From Escherichia phage JS98, in the sequence record NC_010105.1: 64,000 nt of DNA. One strand, 5' to 3'. Position 1 is the first letter of the stretch, and every line of letters starts with the position of its first letter. Under the pieces are notes generated by a model. It ran no database searches and was not told where the DNA came from. It was given only the letters and a program-made list of their open reading frames with translations. A program made the position numbers and the translations under genes. Of this stretch, positions 2,437-27,182 are shown piece by piece.

Positions 2437-2746
2437 TTTTAACTACCTCATGTTGAACATATTCTCTGGTAGAACCCAGTTCAGCCAGAATTCTTCTCAT
2501 AGAACCCATTGTACTTTTGTGCTCTCTGTGGCGATACAATATCTCTAGAACCTTTTCCTGGACAACAGGAGAGAGCGCCTGGTTATCTTTAATCTTTAAG
2601 GCAATAGATTTTACAGCCTTGAGATATTCTAGTCCCTTGCCGCTTGTAATCACTACTCCTTCGTCTTTACAATTGCGAATTGCGGTCTCCATAAAAGACA
2701 AAGCCAAGTTGTCAGTGTTCACTATACTATTATCTTGCATAATCAT
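2423..2746 (-). CDS. hypothetical protein
   Basis: 107-aa minus-strand ORF, overlaps downstream ORF by 14 nt. Confidence 0.4.
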   Translation of the reverse strand: MIMQDNSIVNTDNLALSFMETAIRNCKDEGVVITSGKGLEYLKAVKSIALKIKDNQALSPVVQEKVLEILYRHREHKSTMGSMRRILAELGSTREYVQHEVVKNDKL

Positions 2747-2800
2747 ATTCTCACCTCTTAGAGAATCGTATCACACTTTTAATCTGTTGTAAACCCCGAA

Positions 2801-2818
2801 AAGGGCCTTGCGGCCCTT
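2801..2818 (-). terminator. possible weak intrinsic terminator
   Basis: hairpin aagggcc-ttgc-ggccctt; on minus strand followed by TTTCGGGG, weak U-tract. Confidence 0.3.
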
Positions 2819-3024
2819 AATTAGTTGCTTGAATCGACTCTATAAACTTGACCACGGGTTTGGTAAACTTCGCCGTCCCATGTTTCAACTGTGATAGTAA
2901 CGTACTCGGCAAAAAGAGGACGTGTATCTGTCCAGAGATAACCATATTCACCTGTGACGAGCGTAACCCAGTACTTTCTCATAAAGTCTCCTTTTATACG
3001 GTACTCATGTACCGTACGTATTTA

Positions 3025-21866: not shown

Positions 21867-22068
21867 TATATTTTTCCATAGGCATCATTATATTTTTCTC
21901 ACGTTTTAAGATAGGGTAATTATATCACTTCACAGCTACAGCATTACTTAATTCCTCGGTTGATAGCCTTATCGACTATCTTCCGAACTTCTCGTTTCTC
22001 GAGCCACACTAATAATAGCAAGGCTCCGAAAGAGAATAATAACAAACCTATAAAAAGCAATAGAGGAC

Positions 22069-22962
22069 CTAGCATACTACGTCCTCATAACGTGGCATTT
22101 CGTATTCAGAATGAATATTGGCACCGAAATAAATGAATTCAGCCAGACCAGGATGGAATACTAAACCTGGGTTCTCATGATAAATGATATGTGGTCTTGA
22201 TTTCAGAATTTGATAATATTCAACCTTACTCGGTTTGAATTTAATAATCTCTACATCAGGACGATAGTCTTCGCGCTTAAATGAATCATTCGGGTCGGTG
22301 ATATAAAGACGAGCACCTTCAGCAGCAGCTTGGTCTACAACTCTTTCGAATTGATAGCACTTATCCGAAATACGGAATGGATGGAAAATACCATCAATTT
22401 TAATAGGCGCTAGACCTTCAGAGTAACGCTCAATTACTGCAGGATTAATTACCTTTTGGTCTACAAAAATCTTATCAGAGGATGCACCTCGTGACACCAG
22501 GACGTCTTTCTGGCATTGGTTCAGGACTGTAGTATAAAGTGAACGTTCAACTGAAGCCACATCAATATCAATGAACTCGTCGATATAATAACGAGGAACT
22601 TCAGGGTCCATTGTGATATTAAAGTTGAATTGTACAGTATGAGCACCATCATAACCTGTGATATCGGTTACCAGTCCTGAGCAATCGTAGTATTCGATTA
22701 GTGAATCGACTACAAACTCATTTTCAGACCAGAAATGTTTACGGGTTTCATAAGCATTTTCTTTATACCAAAGTGGTACGAAATTCAGTTCTGGGAATAA
22801 TTCAATGCATTCTTTGATATCGCTCGAATTTCTAGGATAAGCCAGATAATCACCTGGACGGGCACGATTTAAATGGAGTTGAAAATTACCGTCCTTAAGG
22901 ACGGCATATTCACCTGTTTCGTAACTACGCATACTGAAAATAGGAACGATAAACAAACTCAT
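22069..22962 (-). CDS. orphan 297-aa protein in the beta-glucosyltransferase slot (candidate DNA-modifying transferase)
   Basis: ATG 22962 overlaps stop of hydroxymethylase gene (ATGA); lies between uvsX and 42 where T4 has beta-gt; no resemblance to T4 beta-gt as recalled. Confidence 0.6.
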   Translation of the reverse strand: MSLFIVPIFSMRSYETGEYAVLKDGNFQLHLNRARPGDYLAYPRNSSDIKECIELFPELNFVPLWYKENAYETRKHFWSENEFVVDSLIEYYDCSGLVTDITGYDGAHTVQFNFNITMDPEVPRYYIDEFIDIDVASVERSLYTTVLNQCQKDVLVSRGASSDKIFVDQKVINPAVIERYSEGLAPIKIDGIFHPFRISDKCYQFERVVDQAAAEGARLYITDPNDSFKREDYRPDVEIIKFKPSKVEYYQILKSRPHIIYHENPGLVFHPGLAEFIYFGANIHSEYEMPRYEDVVC

Positions 22963-23657
22963 TTCAGGAAACCTCGGACGTAGTCAAAATCACGTTCAAA
23001 CACGTGTGCACTTACCATGGTGTGGGAATATGTACCCAAACCGACACCACACTGTTCAGCAATAAATGCCATCAGTTTACCCTGCAGATAGAAATCCAGC
23101 TGCATAACAACAGCACAGTTCTGCGAACGCATATGGGTGTGTGCATACAACCGTCCGTCACGAATATAATACGTTACCGAATCGGTACATGGATATTCTA
23201 AGGATTCATCAGAATCAAGGAGGGCTTGGTCTTGTTCTTGGAGAATCTGGAACACGACTCTTCGCGAGTTAGCCTTTTCTTTAAGCTCTTTAAGTAGGGC
23301 TGGGAGCTGGGCCACAATTCGAGGTCCATAGAAAGTGTTGAAGTTTGCAGGCAATACGTCACTTTTCGGCTTATCAATGAACTTAGCAACATTAGGATAT
23401 TCCTTAAATGCTTCGGCAGCGTCAGTACCACCAGAAATCATAAATTTCCAAAAGGATTCGGCATATTCATAACTAATACGATTGATACGTGGGTCGGTGA
23501 ATTTATAGGTGCTTGCATCCAGTACTTCTACAGAAGCAGAACCAATTTCATAACAACGTCCGATACGAGAATCAACTGCAAACTGTGGAGCTTCCAGGAT
23601 TTCTTCGTTCATTTGTTTAAATGCGTTTTCAAAACTAACAGCGGTAATGTGTTTCAT
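22959..23657 (-). CDS. 42: dNMP hydroxymethylase (thymidylate synthase superfamily), gene 42-like
   Basis: 232 aa; NSRRVVFQ...CTDSVTYYIRDGRLY...MRSQN core similar to T4 gp42. Confidence 0.75.
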   Translation of the reverse strand: MKHITAVSFENAFKQMNEEILEAPQFAVDSRIGRCYEIGSASVEVLDASTYKFTDPRINRISYEYAESFWKFMISGGTDAAEAFKEYPNVAKFIDKPKSDVLPANFNTFYGPRIVAQLPALLKELKEKANSRRVVFQILQEQDQALLDSDESLEYPCTDSVTYYIRDGRLYAHTHMRSQNCAVVMQLDFYLQGKLMAFIAEQCGVGLGTYSHTMVSAHVFERDFDYVRGFLK

Positions 23658-24190
23658 TTATTCACCTTATTTTCAATATATTCGTTCAGACGTTTTAATT
23701 CTACCATATCAACATTAAGCAAATTATTATGGCCGTCATGGTTTAAGATTTTAAACACGTTTTCAAAACATGTTTCGTATTGCCGGATAGTTAGGTTGAA
23801 CTCATCTTTGGTTAATTTAATAAGGTCGTCTTCGAAGTCTTCGTCTAATGGATTACGAGTTAAAATAACCTCGATAACGTTAAATTCGGATTTAAACCCT
23901 TTCCAATCTTCCAGTTCTACATAAGGGTCCATTTCACCACGAAGGAATCCTGAGTAAACAATATTACTTGGATAACCACGGTCAAGGATATAAACGAAAT
24001 TAGGGTCTAAAAACTTATACAGAGTTTCAACTAAAGCCTTATCGTTATCAGTTCCTAATGAAATACACTTGCCATTAATCTTTTTAGGAAAATCAATAAG
24101 GCGGTATTTCTTATTGGATAACAGATTTTTAATTAAAGTGGACTTCCCGGAATTATCCGGGCCGTCTATAACAATGATTTTTGGATTCAT
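23654..24190 (-). CDS. P-loop kinase (dNMP/nucleoside kinase-like)
   Basis: 178 aa; Walker A GPDNSGKST; DRGYPS (DRY-like) motif; ATGA coupling at both ends. Confidence 0.6.
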   Translation of the reverse strand: MNPKIIVIDGPDNSGKSTLIKNLLSNKKYRLIDFPKKINGKCISLGTDNDKALVETLYKFLDPNFVYILDRGYPSNIVYSGFLRGEMDPYVELEDWKGFKSEFNVIEVILTRNPLDEDFEDDLIKLTKDEFNLTIRQYETCFENVFKILNHDGHNNLLNVDMVELKRLNEYIENKVNK

Positions 24191-24570
24191 GGATGATAGG
24201 CCTTATAACTATCAAGAGTTCCTTCACGAACCATTTCTTTAAAGTGGTCAGGACGGATTGCTCGGTCATCGATGATAAAAGTATAACTCGGCTTGTGTGT
24301 AAGCAAATTGTGATATTTCAATCCAATTTTTTCAAGGTTCTTAACCAATGCAGGAACTACTTCAACCAAGATTCGACCTGGGCCACATGAAGTCATGCCA
24401 CGGGCGGTGAACAATGTAATCTCGTACCCTTCATCATAAAGCTTATTAATCATGGACACCATTTCGGTGTCCGGTTTAAAGTTCTCATAATCACGGTCAT
24501 GGTTCCAAATCGTGATTGTGTTATCGATATCAAAACATAAATGTGGCTTATTTTCTACTCGATGCGACAT
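24187..24570 (-). CDS. HAD-superfamily phosphatase
   Basis: HAD motif I CFDIDNTIT, motif II LFTAR; start placed at ATG 24570 (TAATG coupling); 24585 is alternative. Confidence 0.6.
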   Translation of the reverse strand: MSHRVENKPHLCFDIDNTITIWNHDRDYENFKPDTEMVSMINKLYDEGYEITLFTARGMTSCGPGRILVEVVPALVKNLEKIGLKYHNLLTHKPSYTFIIDDRAIRPDHFKEMVREGTLDSYKAYHP

Positions 24571-26243
24571 TAAATTTTCTTCCATTGTTTGTGGAGTTCA
24601 GTAGAACCTGTAGGTTTATATTTTACACCAGTTTCCTGGTCAAGCAAAACCCACTTATCAGGACAACGAGTAATAATTTGGGCCGTAATAGGGTCACGAA
24701 CTTCATCGACAAATTCACCCGTAATAAGCTTACGCTTACGAGGATGCCGCTTCAGCAGCACACTCAGTTGGTACAAACCGTTATAATAAGCACCCAGAGC
24801 TTTCAGAGGGTTATTCTTAAAGTACCCTGCCAGAGCCATCCAAATAACAGCAATCCAGAGCTTGTGCTTAAATGTGCACATAGGGATATCGTCTAAAGGC
24901 ATAACCTTTTCGATATCAACGAATACACGAGTTCCGTTACGAGTTAATCCACCCCATAGAGGGTCTGAGTTAAATTTGTCATAGCCATCGATAGAATAAA
25001 GCACCTTAGCTTCATCATAAATCGCAGGGCCTTTAGAACTATTACCGAAATAACCACGTGGGTCGATGATTTTAATATCACCTTCGTCCGACAGCATAAT
25101 ATTACTGTAGTGCGGGTCACCATGAATAAGTTGGTACGGTTCTTTATGTTCAGACAGAATTTCTAGTGCATGGCGAAGAAGTTTTTCAGGGTCGCCTACT
25201 TTGAAATCGTTAACATGGGTAATGCCTTGTGGAGCAAAGCCTTCAATCAACCCAGCAATAGAAGCATTACGAATAAGGACCTTGTCCAACACTTCTTTCT
25301 TAACATCAGAATACCATTGTTCATCGGACGGGTTATCAATAGTTCCACCAAATGAACGTAATGCACTAATGACCTTATAAACCATGAGGACTTTAGTTTC
25401 TTTGGACATAAACCGGTATGCATCTGCCATGGTACGACCAAAGATACGTTCCATTTTAATGAATTCGCCTGGAGAAAAGTCTACAATGCTAGGAACGAAT
25501 TCAGAATCAATAGAATTATACCAATTGATTTCTTTAGATTGAATTTCTTTACCTAATTCGTTAGTTGGTACTTTAATAGCCAGATTCTCGGTGAACTCTA
25601 ATTTATTAAATTCACGGTTAATTTCAGAATCTTCATGGGCTTTAGCCAGTTTCAATTTGTCACCGACATCAACTACAAAGTCCAGTTTACGTTCAGTCAA
25701 ATAGACCATTGAATCCAGGTTATCGGCAAGGTCTTCACCATAATTAGAACGGTCGAAACCTGTCCAATTGGCCACCTGATACAAACCAACTACGCCACCG
25801 CCCGTACCAATTTCACGTAAGTACGGTTCTTCAAATGTAAAACGACAGTCAGTTCCATAGGTATAACAGTAGTCATTACCCCATTCAACTTTATGACCGA
25901 TAGGAATGATGTCACACCAGTTAAACAGGACATTATGGCCAATGATATCTTCGGCAATACAATCGATAGCATGAGCTGAACCATTAGCAACATCAACGTT
26001 ACGAATAGTGAATTTAGGCTTATCACCAGTAATCATATTAATGGATTTAATATAGCCTTTAACGAGGTCGTTAAATTTGCTGTGAATAACCAGAATAATT
26101 TCATCTGATTGGTTACTATACAAATCATACAAATGCTTTAATACCGTATGTTGTTTGTAGTTAACCAATACCTTCGGGATTTCGTTAGTAATTGGATACA
26201 ACCGTGAGCCAAGACCTGCGCCTAAAATAACAACCTTTTTCAT
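24570..26243 (-). CDS. bifunctional sugar-phosphate nucleotidyltransferase / APH-ChoK-like kinase
   Basis: N-terminal MKKVVILGAGLGSRLYPIT (RmlA/MurU-type NTase); C-terminal HGDPHYSNIML...IIDPRGY (Brenner kinase motif); ATG 26243 with SD GAGGAA. Confidence 0.65.
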   Translation of the reverse strand: MKKVVILGAGLGSRLYPITNEIPKVLVNYKQHTVLKHLYDLYSNQSDEIILVIHSKFNDLVKGYIKSINMITGDKPKFTIRNVDVANGSAHAIDCIAEDIIGHNVLFNWCDIIPIGHKVEWGNDYCYTYGTDCRFTFEEPYLREIGTGGGVVGLYQVANWTGFDRSNYGEDLADNLDSMVYLTERKLDFVVDVGDKLKLAKAHEDSEINREFNKLEFTENLAIKVPTNELGKEIQSKEINWYNSIDSEFVPSIVDFSPGEFIKMERIFGRTMADAYRFMSKETKVLMVYKVISALRSFGGTIDNPSDEQWYSDVKKEVLDKVLIRNASIAGLIEGFAPQGITHVNDFKVGDPEKLLRHALEILSEHKEPYQLIHGDPHYSNIMLSDEGDIKIIDPRGYFGNSSKGPAIYDEAKVLYSIDGYDKFNSDPLWGGLTRNGTRVFVDIEKVMPLDDIPMCTFKHKLWIAVIWMALAGYFKNNPLKALGAYYNGLYQLSVLLKRHPRKRKLITGEFVDEVRDPITAQIITRCPDKWVLLDQETGVKYKPTGSTELHKQWKKI

Positions 26244-26303
26244 TATCTGTTCCTCAAGTGAATGTAGGTACATTATACACTATTTTTAATAAATTTCTAT
26301 TGC

Positions 26304-26804
26304 TTAAATCTTATCTTTACCGTATTCCATGCACTGTTCTACTGCAGCAGGCACTTTGGTCTTAAGCTTGTTGATTTGTTTCTTATAATCACGGGCCTTA
26401 TCGAAGCTCTCGGTTTCGAGCATTTCGTAATAACGAGCCTCATGGACAGAAATCTGTAAATTGATATGGTTTACACACATAGAATACAGTTTCTGCTTTT
26501 TGTACAAATCATCTTGGCGCTTCATTTCTGCCTGGTGTTTGGCTAGTACCGCTTCACGCTTAGACTCTTGTTCACGTTGGAATTCGATTTCCCTTTGAGC
26601 ATATTTTGCACAGTTATTACCACATTGATTATTAGCTCGGGTGTACACAAGTCCAGAACCGGCACGGAATTTCATTTCGCCGTCGAATTGTTTCTGTTCA
26701 GCTGCGATACGAGCTTTACCAACTTCATCAGCAGAAACTGCACCACCGTATTGGACTGCGCAACCTGATAGGAGCATACTCATTGCGATAATTAACTTTT
26801 TCAT
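26304..26804 (-). CDS. putative lipoprotein
   Basis: 166 aa; MKKLIIAMSMLLSGC lipobox. Confidence 0.5.
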   Translation of the reverse strand: MKKLIIAMSMLLSGCAVQYGGAVSADEVGKARIAAEQKQFDGEMKFRAGSGLVYTRANNQCGNNCAKYAQREIEFQREQESKREAVLAKHQAEMKRQDDLYKKQKLYSMCVNHINLQISVHEARYYEMLETESFDKARDYKKQINKLKTKVPAAVEQCMEYGKDKI

Positions 26805-26811
26805 AATATCC

Positions 26812-26949
26812 TCAATTAAAACAGTTATACTTAATTTGTGCTATAAGAATAATCCATCCCATGATTAATGTTGGAATCATTGGAGGAATTGCCACTGCCC
26901 AATAAATGGTAAAGGCAGCCATTATAAGAAATAAAATAATTATCTTCAT
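26812..26949 (-). CDS. small hydrophobic membrane peptide
   Basis: 45-aa ORF not in track; ATGA overlap with imm-like stop. Confidence 0.35.
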   Translation of the reverse strand: MKIIILFLIMAAFTIYWAVAIPPMIPTLIMGWIILIAQIKYNCFN

Positions 26950-27182
26950 TGTTTAACGATAATGATTTGTGCGTTTGATTTACGTTCAGCGACGATAGCC
27001 CAGATTAAAGCCACTACCCAACCAATCATTGTCCATCCTAACAGGAGATTAAGGAAGAAGATTCCGACATTGCTACGAGTGCCTCGCAGAAGAGCTAGAA
27101 TCCATGGTAAAAAGTAACCAATGAACATAATAACCAGAGAACCAAATCCTAAAACACCAGCACTAACGATTAAAGCTTCCAT
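26946..27182 (-). CDS. imm: Imm-like membrane protein (superinfection immunity position)
   Basis: 78 aa, two TM helices; between 42 and 43 as T4 imm. Confidence 0.5.
   Translation of the reverse strand: MEALIVSAGVLGFGSLVIMFIGYFLPWILALLRGTRSNVGIFFLNLLLGWTMIGWVVALIWAIVAERKSNAQIIIVKQ

Follow-up and report, generated by a model that had tools for sequence, protein, structure and literature searches.

Described systems and the locus in JS98

In phage T4, beta-glucosyltransferase (beta-gt, CAZy family GT63) transfers glucose from UDP-glucose to 5-hydroxymethylcytosine (hmC) and so protects the phage DNA; its gene lies between gene 42 and uvsX, in the order 43, imm.1, imm, 42, beta-gt, segA, uvsX, 40, 41. 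The absence of glucosyltransferase genes from RB69 and JS98 was raised as an open question by Petrov et al. (2010). For RB69 the question has been answered: the modified base is arabosylated 5-hydroxycytosine (5hoC), which corrects the arabinosyl-hmC reported in 2018 (Lee et al., 2026, PMC13326640); the revision from hmC to 5hoC is also described by another group. For phages of the JS98 type, we infer an answer from a gene for a 297-aa protein in a stretch of 64,000 nucleotides of Escherichia phage JS98 (NC_010105.1; the whole stretch is called the window here). This protein is the full-length orthologue of proteins of RB69, DLP3 and Thanatos, is modelled with a glycosyltransferase fold of the GT-B type, and is encoded immediately behind a homologue of thymidylate synthase (ThyA) that carries the signature of a 5-hydroxy-dCMP (5hodCMP) synthase. 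We consider it probable that it is the base-proximal glycosyltransferase of a 5hoC pathway, which would transfer arabinose from UDP-arabinofuranose (UDP-Araf) to the 5-OH of 5hoC.

The orthologous family of RB69 gp46:47 and DLP3 gp79 was proposed as 'arabinosyltransferase 1', the first and base-proximal enzyme (Lee et al., 2026, PMC13326640), and Thanatos TH1_063 was described among the orthologues as a putative glycosyltransferase-fold protein (PMC12838424). As in JS98, each of these genes comes right after a ThyA homologue with asparagine at position 169 (N169), and the products share the GT-B fold and the structural neighbours MshA (3c4q) and sucrose-phosphate synthase (6kih). The RB69, DLP3 and Thanatos clusters also resemble that of the window in having a thymidylate kinase (TMK)-like kinase, a HAD phosphatase and a bifunctional nucleotidyltransferase-kinase. 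The window differs from them in that the kinase gene is upstream of the ThyA homologue rather than downstream of the transferase, in having no isomerase, U32-like gene or second transferase, and in that its AfhE-like enzyme (the bifunctional protein) is of a divergent lineage.

A second group of transferases, RB69 gp3 (ORF003c) and DLP3 gp76-77, provides the second and third arabinosyltransferases of the same pathway. These too have the GT-B fold, and UDP-Araf has been shown to be the donor for DLP3 gp76 and gp77 acting together, but they belong to another sequence family, are longer (about 370 aa, against 297), add sugar to sugar, and are absent from Dhakaviruses, the genus to which JS98 belongs. 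The 'Aat' protein of Bas46 is presumed to fall in the gp3/gp76-77 family.

Position and family of the gene

The two genes on which the argument mainly turns are as follows.

22069..22962, minus strand: the 297-aa open reading frame (ORF) with an ATG start, from the ORF scan of the window; the putative transferase
22959..23657, minus strand: 232-aa protein of the thymidylate synthase family with the 5hodCMP synthase signature (PF00303 match and residue mapping)

They are joined by an ATGA overlap, in which the ATG of the 297-aa ORF (22962-22960) meets the TGA (22961-22959) of the upstream ThyA-family gene. The minus-strand gene order of the window (DNA polymerase, two small membrane or lipoprotein genes, a five-gene chain ending in the putative transferase, a 43-aa ORF, uvsX, gp40 and gp41) parallels that of T4, and the gene therefore occupies the map slot of beta-gt. 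In these respects the first-pass annotation of the locus, which had placed an ATGA-coupled 297-aa ORF behind the gene 42 homologue in the beta-gt slot, was correct, as it was in seeing no resemblance to T4 beta-gt: the best blastp E value between the two proteins was 0.65, and aligning the profile of the family with beta-gt by hhalign gave a probability of 0.14%.

The region is 98.6% identical to that of JS10, a T4-type phage of the genus Dhakavirus, in which the counterpart is EpJS10_0038, and the protein is 100% identical to its IME281 counterpart. Full-length homologues occur in 351 phage records (175 of the records that contain the family being of Escherichia phages, 48 of them at >=95% identity), and the family profile collects 240 clusters at 50% identity from among 1.84 billion representative proteins, so this is a real gene and not a chance ORF. 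The earlier description of the protein as an orphan is thus apt for its annotation but not for its distribution. It has no Pfam match (E <= 0.1) and no NCBIfam match (E <= 0.01), it falls in PHROG 3891, to which no function is assigned, and not one of its 117 homologue clusters in a collection of 5.8 billion proteins has a precomputed Pfam domain. The gene is labelled 'hypothetical protein' in every Dhakavirus record inspected (including that of JS10) and in most other records; in one record the Mosigvirus orthologue is annotated 'glycosyltransferase'.

Along its full length the protein is 67.9% identical to the product of the Mosigvirus gene placed after the ThyA homologue, 52% identical to Thanatos TH1_063 (E = 3e-99) and 49.8% identical to DLP3_079 (XEO41459.1, DLP3 gp79). 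The viral structure library BFVD returned two RB69 entries, RB69ORF047c (70% identity over the N-terminal 179 residues) and RB69ORF046c (64% over the C-terminal 114 residues), which are the two halves of gp46:47, separated in the RB69 record because of a sequencing error (PMC13326640). By sequence comparison, then, it is the full-length orthologue of RB69 gp46:47, DLP3 gp79 and Thanatos TH1_063. Since it belongs to this family, and since Lee et al. (2026, PMC13326640) include Dhakaviruses in their list of genera that have syntenic clusters, both the gene family and the cluster are already known, and the earlier suggestion of a possibly new transferase family is overtaken by the descriptions of orthologues published in 2025–2026 (PMC13326640, PMC12838424).

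No sequence bridge from the protein to any CAZy family was found: the family profile is unmatched by T4 beta-gt, by RB69 gp3 (hhalign probability 0.2%) or by any sequence in the PDB. Because the profile finds none of these, and just 240 clusters in 1.84 billion proteins, the family is a small branch of the GT-B fold that stands apart in sequence. Very distant relatives (24-29% identity) at two loci (L056 and L060) adjoin a U32-like gene; no ThyA homologue or kinase was detected within 8 kb of them.

Predicted structure and conserved residues

An AlphaFold2 model built with an 83-sequence alignment (pLDDT 95.7, pTM 0.90) consists of two alternating beta/alpha domains, comprising roughly residues 1-185 and 186-297. 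When it was compared with the PDB by Foldseek, the top matches were all of GT-B fold, at about 10% identity, and 103 matches had E <= 1e-3. They included MshA (3c4q, TM 0.64), HepE (4xso), tetrahydrobiopterin glucosyltransferase (5ze7), sucrose-phosphate synthase (6kih) and UDP-GlcNAc 2-epimerases. We are confident from this model that the protein has a GT-B glycosyltransferase fold, so that the structure prediction and Foldseek search that the first-pass annotation had advised came out in favour of a transferase.

Conservation was read even in relatives at 24-30% identity. In the N-terminal domain the invariant or nearly invariant residues are M11-R12-S13, Y19, D24-G25-N26, Y66, N69-A70 and R74, and in the C-terminal domain they are P195-F-R197-x-S-D200, Y203, T222-D-P-N225, K246, H270 and E275; R197, K246, H270 and E275 are invariant even among the distant relatives. 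The C-terminal set looks like the nucleoside diphosphate (NDP)-sugar site of retaining GT-B enzymes of the GT4 type, and its Arg/Lys residues and helix-start His...Glu pair in particular resemble the NDP-binding residues of GT4 enzymes, a likeness that we treat as a lead only. Candidate donor-binding residues would be R197/K201, T222-D-P-N225, K246 and H270...E275.

GT4-type retaining enzymes (MshA, HepE and PimA-like proteins) are the best structural matches, but the protein has no match to Pfam Glycos_transf_1, is about 10% identical to them and is some 60-100 residues shorter. With just 240 clusters found in 1.84 billion proteins, the family does not merge with GT4 by sequence.

The adjacent ThyA homologue and the acceptor base

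In RB69 and DLP3 the relevant ThyA homologues (gp48 and gp80, respectively) have been verified experimentally to convert dCMP to 5hodCMP; such synthases carry flavin and take the oxygen from O2, and the substitution D169N is their diagnostic residue (PMC13326640). The ThyA homologue of the window was aligned with E. coli ThyA, T4 gp42, the Mosigvirus homologue and DLP3 gp80 (the E. coli sequence used reproduces the residue numbers quoted in PMC13326640). It has E143, N169 and D177 (L143E/D169N/N177D in E. coli ThyA numbering), whereas D169 is kept in T4 gp42 and in gp42 of Serratia phage PS2, and it shares 71% identity with DLP3 gp80 and 80% with the Mosigvirus homologue. Because the neighbour has both this signature and 71-80% identity to homologues of verified enzymes, the acceptor base in JS98 is most likely 5hoC and not hmC. 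The first-pass annotation had called the neighbour a hydroxymethylase; it is indeed a gene 42 homologue, but from its signature residues it is probably not a hydroxymethylase. In database records it is labelled variously 'dCMP hydroxymethylase', 'thymidylate synthase' or 'hypothetical protein'.

The same residue bears on the reading given in the first-pass annotation, that the 297-aa protein decorates hmC as a functional analogue of T4 beta-gt. That reading was right about the gene and about its general role, as the GT-B fold and the coupling indicate. Besides the shared map slot, it could draw on Serratia phage PS2, where gene 42 is of the D169 (hmC) type and is followed by the gene for a very distant paralogue of the protein. 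Against it stand the N169 of the adjacent synthase and of the synthases at the loci of all close homologues, the reassignment of the RB69 modification from hmC to 5hoC (PMC13326640), and the unrelatedness of the protein to beta-gt in sequence. The PS2 paralogue, for its part, has lost most of the residues that are invariant in the family, and we regard hmC decoration as very improbable. What the two proteins would have in common, then, is the slot between the gene 42 homologue and uvsX, the GT-B fold and a proposed role in protecting phage DNA by the transfer of sugar to a base, and they would differ in acceptor (hmC in T4, most likely 5hoC in JS98) and in donor (UDP-glucose in T4, probably UDP-Araf in JS98).

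The paralogue in question is PS2 gp042 (L011 5001-5927). Its losses comprise R12, R74, R197, D200, K246 and H270, and it may serve another function, or none at all.

Linkage in related loci

When IMG/VR was scanned with the alignment of the family, 48 loci were recovered, and each companion gene was searched for in them; in 44 the homologue of the protein is at >=37% identity. An N169 ThyA homologue (with the motif MRSxN) lies no more than 2.2 kb upstream on the same strand in 42 of the 42 informative loci among the 44, the other two contigs starting inside the gene. A TMK-like kinase gene is nearby in all 43 informative loci (the exception ends 27 nt past the gene); it is mostly directly downstream of the transferase, and is upstream in clusters of the Dhakavirus and Marfavirus types. 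The genes for AfhE, HAD and isomerase proteins, in contrast, vary between loci. A gene for arabinose-5-phosphate isomerase is added in many enterobacterial and Acinetobacter phage clusters, and a U32-like gene in enterobacterial and Thanatos clusters only; in one metagenomic clade there are no sugar-activation genes within 8 kb, and a flavin reductase gene adjoins the ThyA homologue.

Jumbo-phage contigs of 355 kb and 383 kb and Sinorhizobium phage phiM9 (Pootjesviridae) also have the three genes for ThyA homologue, transferase and kinase together, the ThyA homologues again having N169. Galactosyl/glucosyl-5-hydroxycytosine has been described for Pootjesviridae (Lee et al., PMC13326640). Since the constant partner is the N169 ThyA homologue, while the sugar genes come and go, the transferase family appears to be tied to the 5hoC-making enzyme and not to one sugar-activation pathway, which argues for action on the base.

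Fusions link the same functions. A HAD-like domain of about 185 aa is joined N-terminally to the transferase in seven cluster representatives (P0131, P0144, P0149, P0155, P0165, P0168 and P0191) and in an IMG/VR ORF (L057 7455-9110), and the transferase has a C-terminal TMK-like kinase in P0208 (PF02223, E = 1.2e-4) and, by a custom profile, in P0223, P0247 and P0207, with scores that are weak but consistent. A custom HAD profile had taken in a natural fusion ORF as a contaminant and was excluded from counting.

We also draw attention to a flavin reductase gene of the Flavodoxin_2 type beside the N169 ThyA homologue in jumbo-phage and metagenomic loci (L009 1-523, L010 6426-6932 and L039-L050); such a neighbour fits the flavin-dependent hydroxylase chemistry of the ThyA homologue. 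None of these loci has a gene for sugar activation within 8 kb.

A proposed pathway, and the alternatives

The remaining members of the five-gene chain are as follows.

23654..24190, minus strand: 178-aa thymidylate kinase-like nucleotide kinase (P-loop/TMK-like matches), ATGA-coupled on both sides
24187..24585, minus strand: 132-aa HAD-type phosphatase, AfhF-like (PHROG 1238, TIGR01689/HAD matches)
24570..26243, minus strand: bifunctional AfhE-like enzyme of about 557 aa, with an N-terminal nucleotidyltransferase (PF00483) and a C-terminal APH-type kinase (PF01636)

All five genes (for the AfhE-like enzyme, HAD phosphatase, TMK-like kinase, ThyA homologue and putative transferase, in that order) are chained by overlaps, ATGA at three of the four junctions and 16 nt at the other. 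The kinase shares 38-40% identity with DLP3 gp78 and with its Mosigvirus counterpart, and the phosphatase is 61-64% identical to its RB69-type and DLP3 gp81 homologues. AfhF is proposed to convert arabinose-1,5-bisphosphate to arabinose-1-phosphate, and AfhE to supply UDP-Araf, a homologue in HY126 having been reported as a UDP-arabinose pyrophosphorylase (summarised in PMC13326640).

The pathway that we propose for JS98, including the donor, the form of the acceptor (DNA or nucleotide), the stereochemistry and the product, would run as follows. The ThyA homologue, to judge from its signature residues and its 71-80% identity to homologues of verified enzymes, would hydroxylate dCMP to 5hodCMP, kinases would convert this to the triphosphate, and the polymerase would incorporate the 5-hydroxy-dC nucleotide. 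The AfhE-like and AfhF-like neighbours would, by homology, turn host arabinose-5-phosphate into UDP-Araf. The 297-aa protein would bind the UDP-sugar in its C-terminal domain and transfer arabinose to the cytosine 5-OH, most likely on DNA after replication, and the resulting mono-arabinosyl-5-hydroxycytosine would shield the DNA from host nucleases.

The prediction of a single sugar comes from what Dhakaviruses lack. In the window, tblastn found no homologue of arabinose-5-phosphate isomerase, of the U32-like protein or of DLP3 gp76 or gp77. When all phage records were searched with RB69 gp3, the Escherichia phage homologues were all at >=95% identity (Mosigvirus, 137 records), the weaker matches were almost all from Acinetobacter phages, and none came from any Serratia phage record; the isomerase shows the same pattern of distribution. 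Since the homologues in Escherichia phages are confined to Mosigvirus-type records, Dhakaviruses are, on this sequence survey, without both a gp3-like second transferase and a phage arabinose-5-phosphate isomerase, and the 297-aa protein is the sole recognisable transferase that they carry for this pathway. In the phages analysed, the more transferases there are, the more sugars the base carries: Thanatos has one and mono-arabinosyl DNA, RB69 has two (with gp3) and mono- and di-arabinosyl DNA, and DLP3 has three (with gp76/77) and tri-arabinosyl DNA (PMC13326640). This comparison of genes with sugars covers Thanatos, RB69 and DLP3; the DNA of phage LC53 is also mono-arabinosylated. By analogy, because Dhakaviruses have no second transferase, the predicted product in JS98 is mono-arabinosyl-5-hydroxycytosine. 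The cluster of the window has AfhE-like and HAD genes and no isomerase gene. The host enzymes KdsD and GutQ, of the pathway to 3-deoxy-D-manno-octulosonic acid (KDO), could supply arabinose-5-phosphate. At the site that RB69 gp3 occupies, the gap between rIIA.1 and gp39 (window 2437-3024), there are just 107-aa and 53-aa ORFs, and JS10 annotates no gene there.

Several observations weigh against arabinose transfer to the base by this protein. Transferase activity has not been demonstrated for any member of the family in the accessible literature. Each DLP3 transferase alone (gp79 being among those cloned) was inactive on 5hoC-DNA with UDP-Araf or its arabinopyranose counterpart, UDP-Arap (PMC13326640), and Thanatos TH1_063 reportedly made UDP-xylose from UTP and xylose-1-phosphate, as seen by liquid chromatography–tandem mass spectrometry (LC-MS/MS), and did not glycosylate ordinary DNA, dCMP or dCTP (PMC12838424). 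The protein is acidic (isoelectric point, pI, 4.9; family median 5.2), whereas T4 beta-gt is basic (9.05). As to the sugar, the AfhE-like enzyme of the window is only 45-48% identical to those of Mosigvirus, DLP3 and Thanatos, which are 56-59% identical among themselves, and we found no nucleoside analysis of any Dhakavirus in the literature. When UvsX, the transferase and the ThyA homologue are compared, Dhakavirus comes nearest to Mosigvirus; the AfhE-like enzyme differs in this, its close relatives (about 80%) being in Marfavirus-type Klebsiella phage clusters that are also without the isomerase. This divergence suggests that the module has been exchanged or that the specificity for the sugar is different, and on a lesser alternative reading, to which the divergence of the AfhE-like enzyme and the lack of an isomerase might point, the pentose attached in Dhakaviruses would not be arabinose. 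With this enzyme an outlier and the phage isomerase absent, we infer the identity of the sugar in the genus rather than assert it.

The failure of the DLP3 transferases to act singly on 5hoC-DNA, the authors being unable to tell a mononucleotide from a DNA acceptor (PMC13326640), could also mean that the sugar is added before replication: the 297-aa protein would arabinosylate free 5hodCMP, the TMK-like kinase would phosphorylate the arabinosyl-nucleotide, and the polymerase would build DNA from a sugar-bearing dCTP analogue. The linkage of this kinase in 43 of 43 informative loci and its fusion to the transferase in at least four protein clusters would then make sense, and so would its apparent redundancy, since the T4 gp1-type dNMP kinase of RB69 converts 5hodCMP and, with the synthase, suffices for incorporation of 5hoC in E. 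coli (PMC13326640). The acidity of the protein points the same way. However, linkage and fusion indicate only a shared pathway, and where a gp1-type kinase is absent the TMK-like enzyme could be a plain 5hodCMP kinase. Most known phage pyrimidine hypermodifications, glycosylations included, are put on DNA after replication, and DLP3 gp76 and gp77 together act on DNA (PMC13326640); gp77, too, is acidic. For this reason pI or net charge was rejected as a decisive test of DNA binding. On balance, addition to the free nucleotide seems unlikely, though it is the most credible of the alternatives.

The reported production of UDP-xylose by TH1_063, a protein 52% identical to that of JS98, raises the further idea that the family makes sugar nucleotides instead of acting on the base, whether as a UDP-pentose pyrophosphorylase or as an epimerase-like enzyme with a GT-B fold; many of the top structural matches are UDP-GlcNAc 2-epimerases, which have that fold. 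We rate the pyrophosphorylase version low because the JS98 protein has the GT-B fold and neither a PF00483 match nor a nucleotidyltransferase fold, PF00483 being found instead in its neighbour (the AfhE-like ORF, 567 aa when taken as open), and because the gene is kept beside those for the ThyA homologue and kinase at loci where no gene for sugar activation lies within 8 kb. Moreover, Dhakaviruses, Thanatos and Serratia phages would be left without any transferase. A sugar-nucleotide enzyme is thus improbable, and transfer of arabinose to the base, most likely on DNA, remains the reading that we prefer.

Implications

Both database labels, of the transferase and of the ThyA homologue, should be changed, and hmC chemistry should not be assumed from synteny with T4. 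Phages of the JS98/JS10 type are candidates for phage therapy, and DNA that probably contains mono-arabinosyl-5-hydroxycytosine would predict which restriction, CRISPR and type IV systems are evaded or triggered, and would explain difficulties in sequencing and cutting it. Of the steps in this newly found pathway, that of the transferase family is the least understood, and the minimal Dhakavirus cluster, with five genes and a single transferase, is a convenient system for studying it.

Other features of the region

The ORF of the AfhE-like enzyme is open as far as 26273 (567 aa), but homologous sequence begins only with the ATG at 26243, as judged from PHROG 4098 (which matches from residue 11), from tblastn and from the annotation of phage CLB_P2, and GAGG is found 8 nt before this ATG; the protein is probably therefore of 557 aa, starting at 26243. 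Around the cluster are four further features.

21944-22075, minus strand: 43-aa ORF, whose ATG overlaps the TAG stop of the putative transferase gene by 7 nt
26272..26299, minus strand: promoter-like TAGAAA-16-TATAAT (consensus scan, 10/12 matches), just upstream of the five-gene chain
26304-26804, minus strand: 166-aa protein with a lipoprotein-type signal, MKKLIIAMSMLLSGC (PHROG 1754, function unassigned), between the polymerase gene and the cluster
26946-27182, minus strand: 78-aa membrane protein with two helices, placed where T4 has imm and, like the 166-aa protein, encoded between polymerase and cluster

Promoter-like and terminator sites in the region are no more numerous than expected from shuffled sequence, and the operon promoter is for that reason only a suggestion. 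The product of the 43-aa ORF, labelled 'hypothetical protein' in phage CLB_P2, is nearly all one hydrophobic helix (MLGPLLLFIGLLLFSFGALLLLVWL...).

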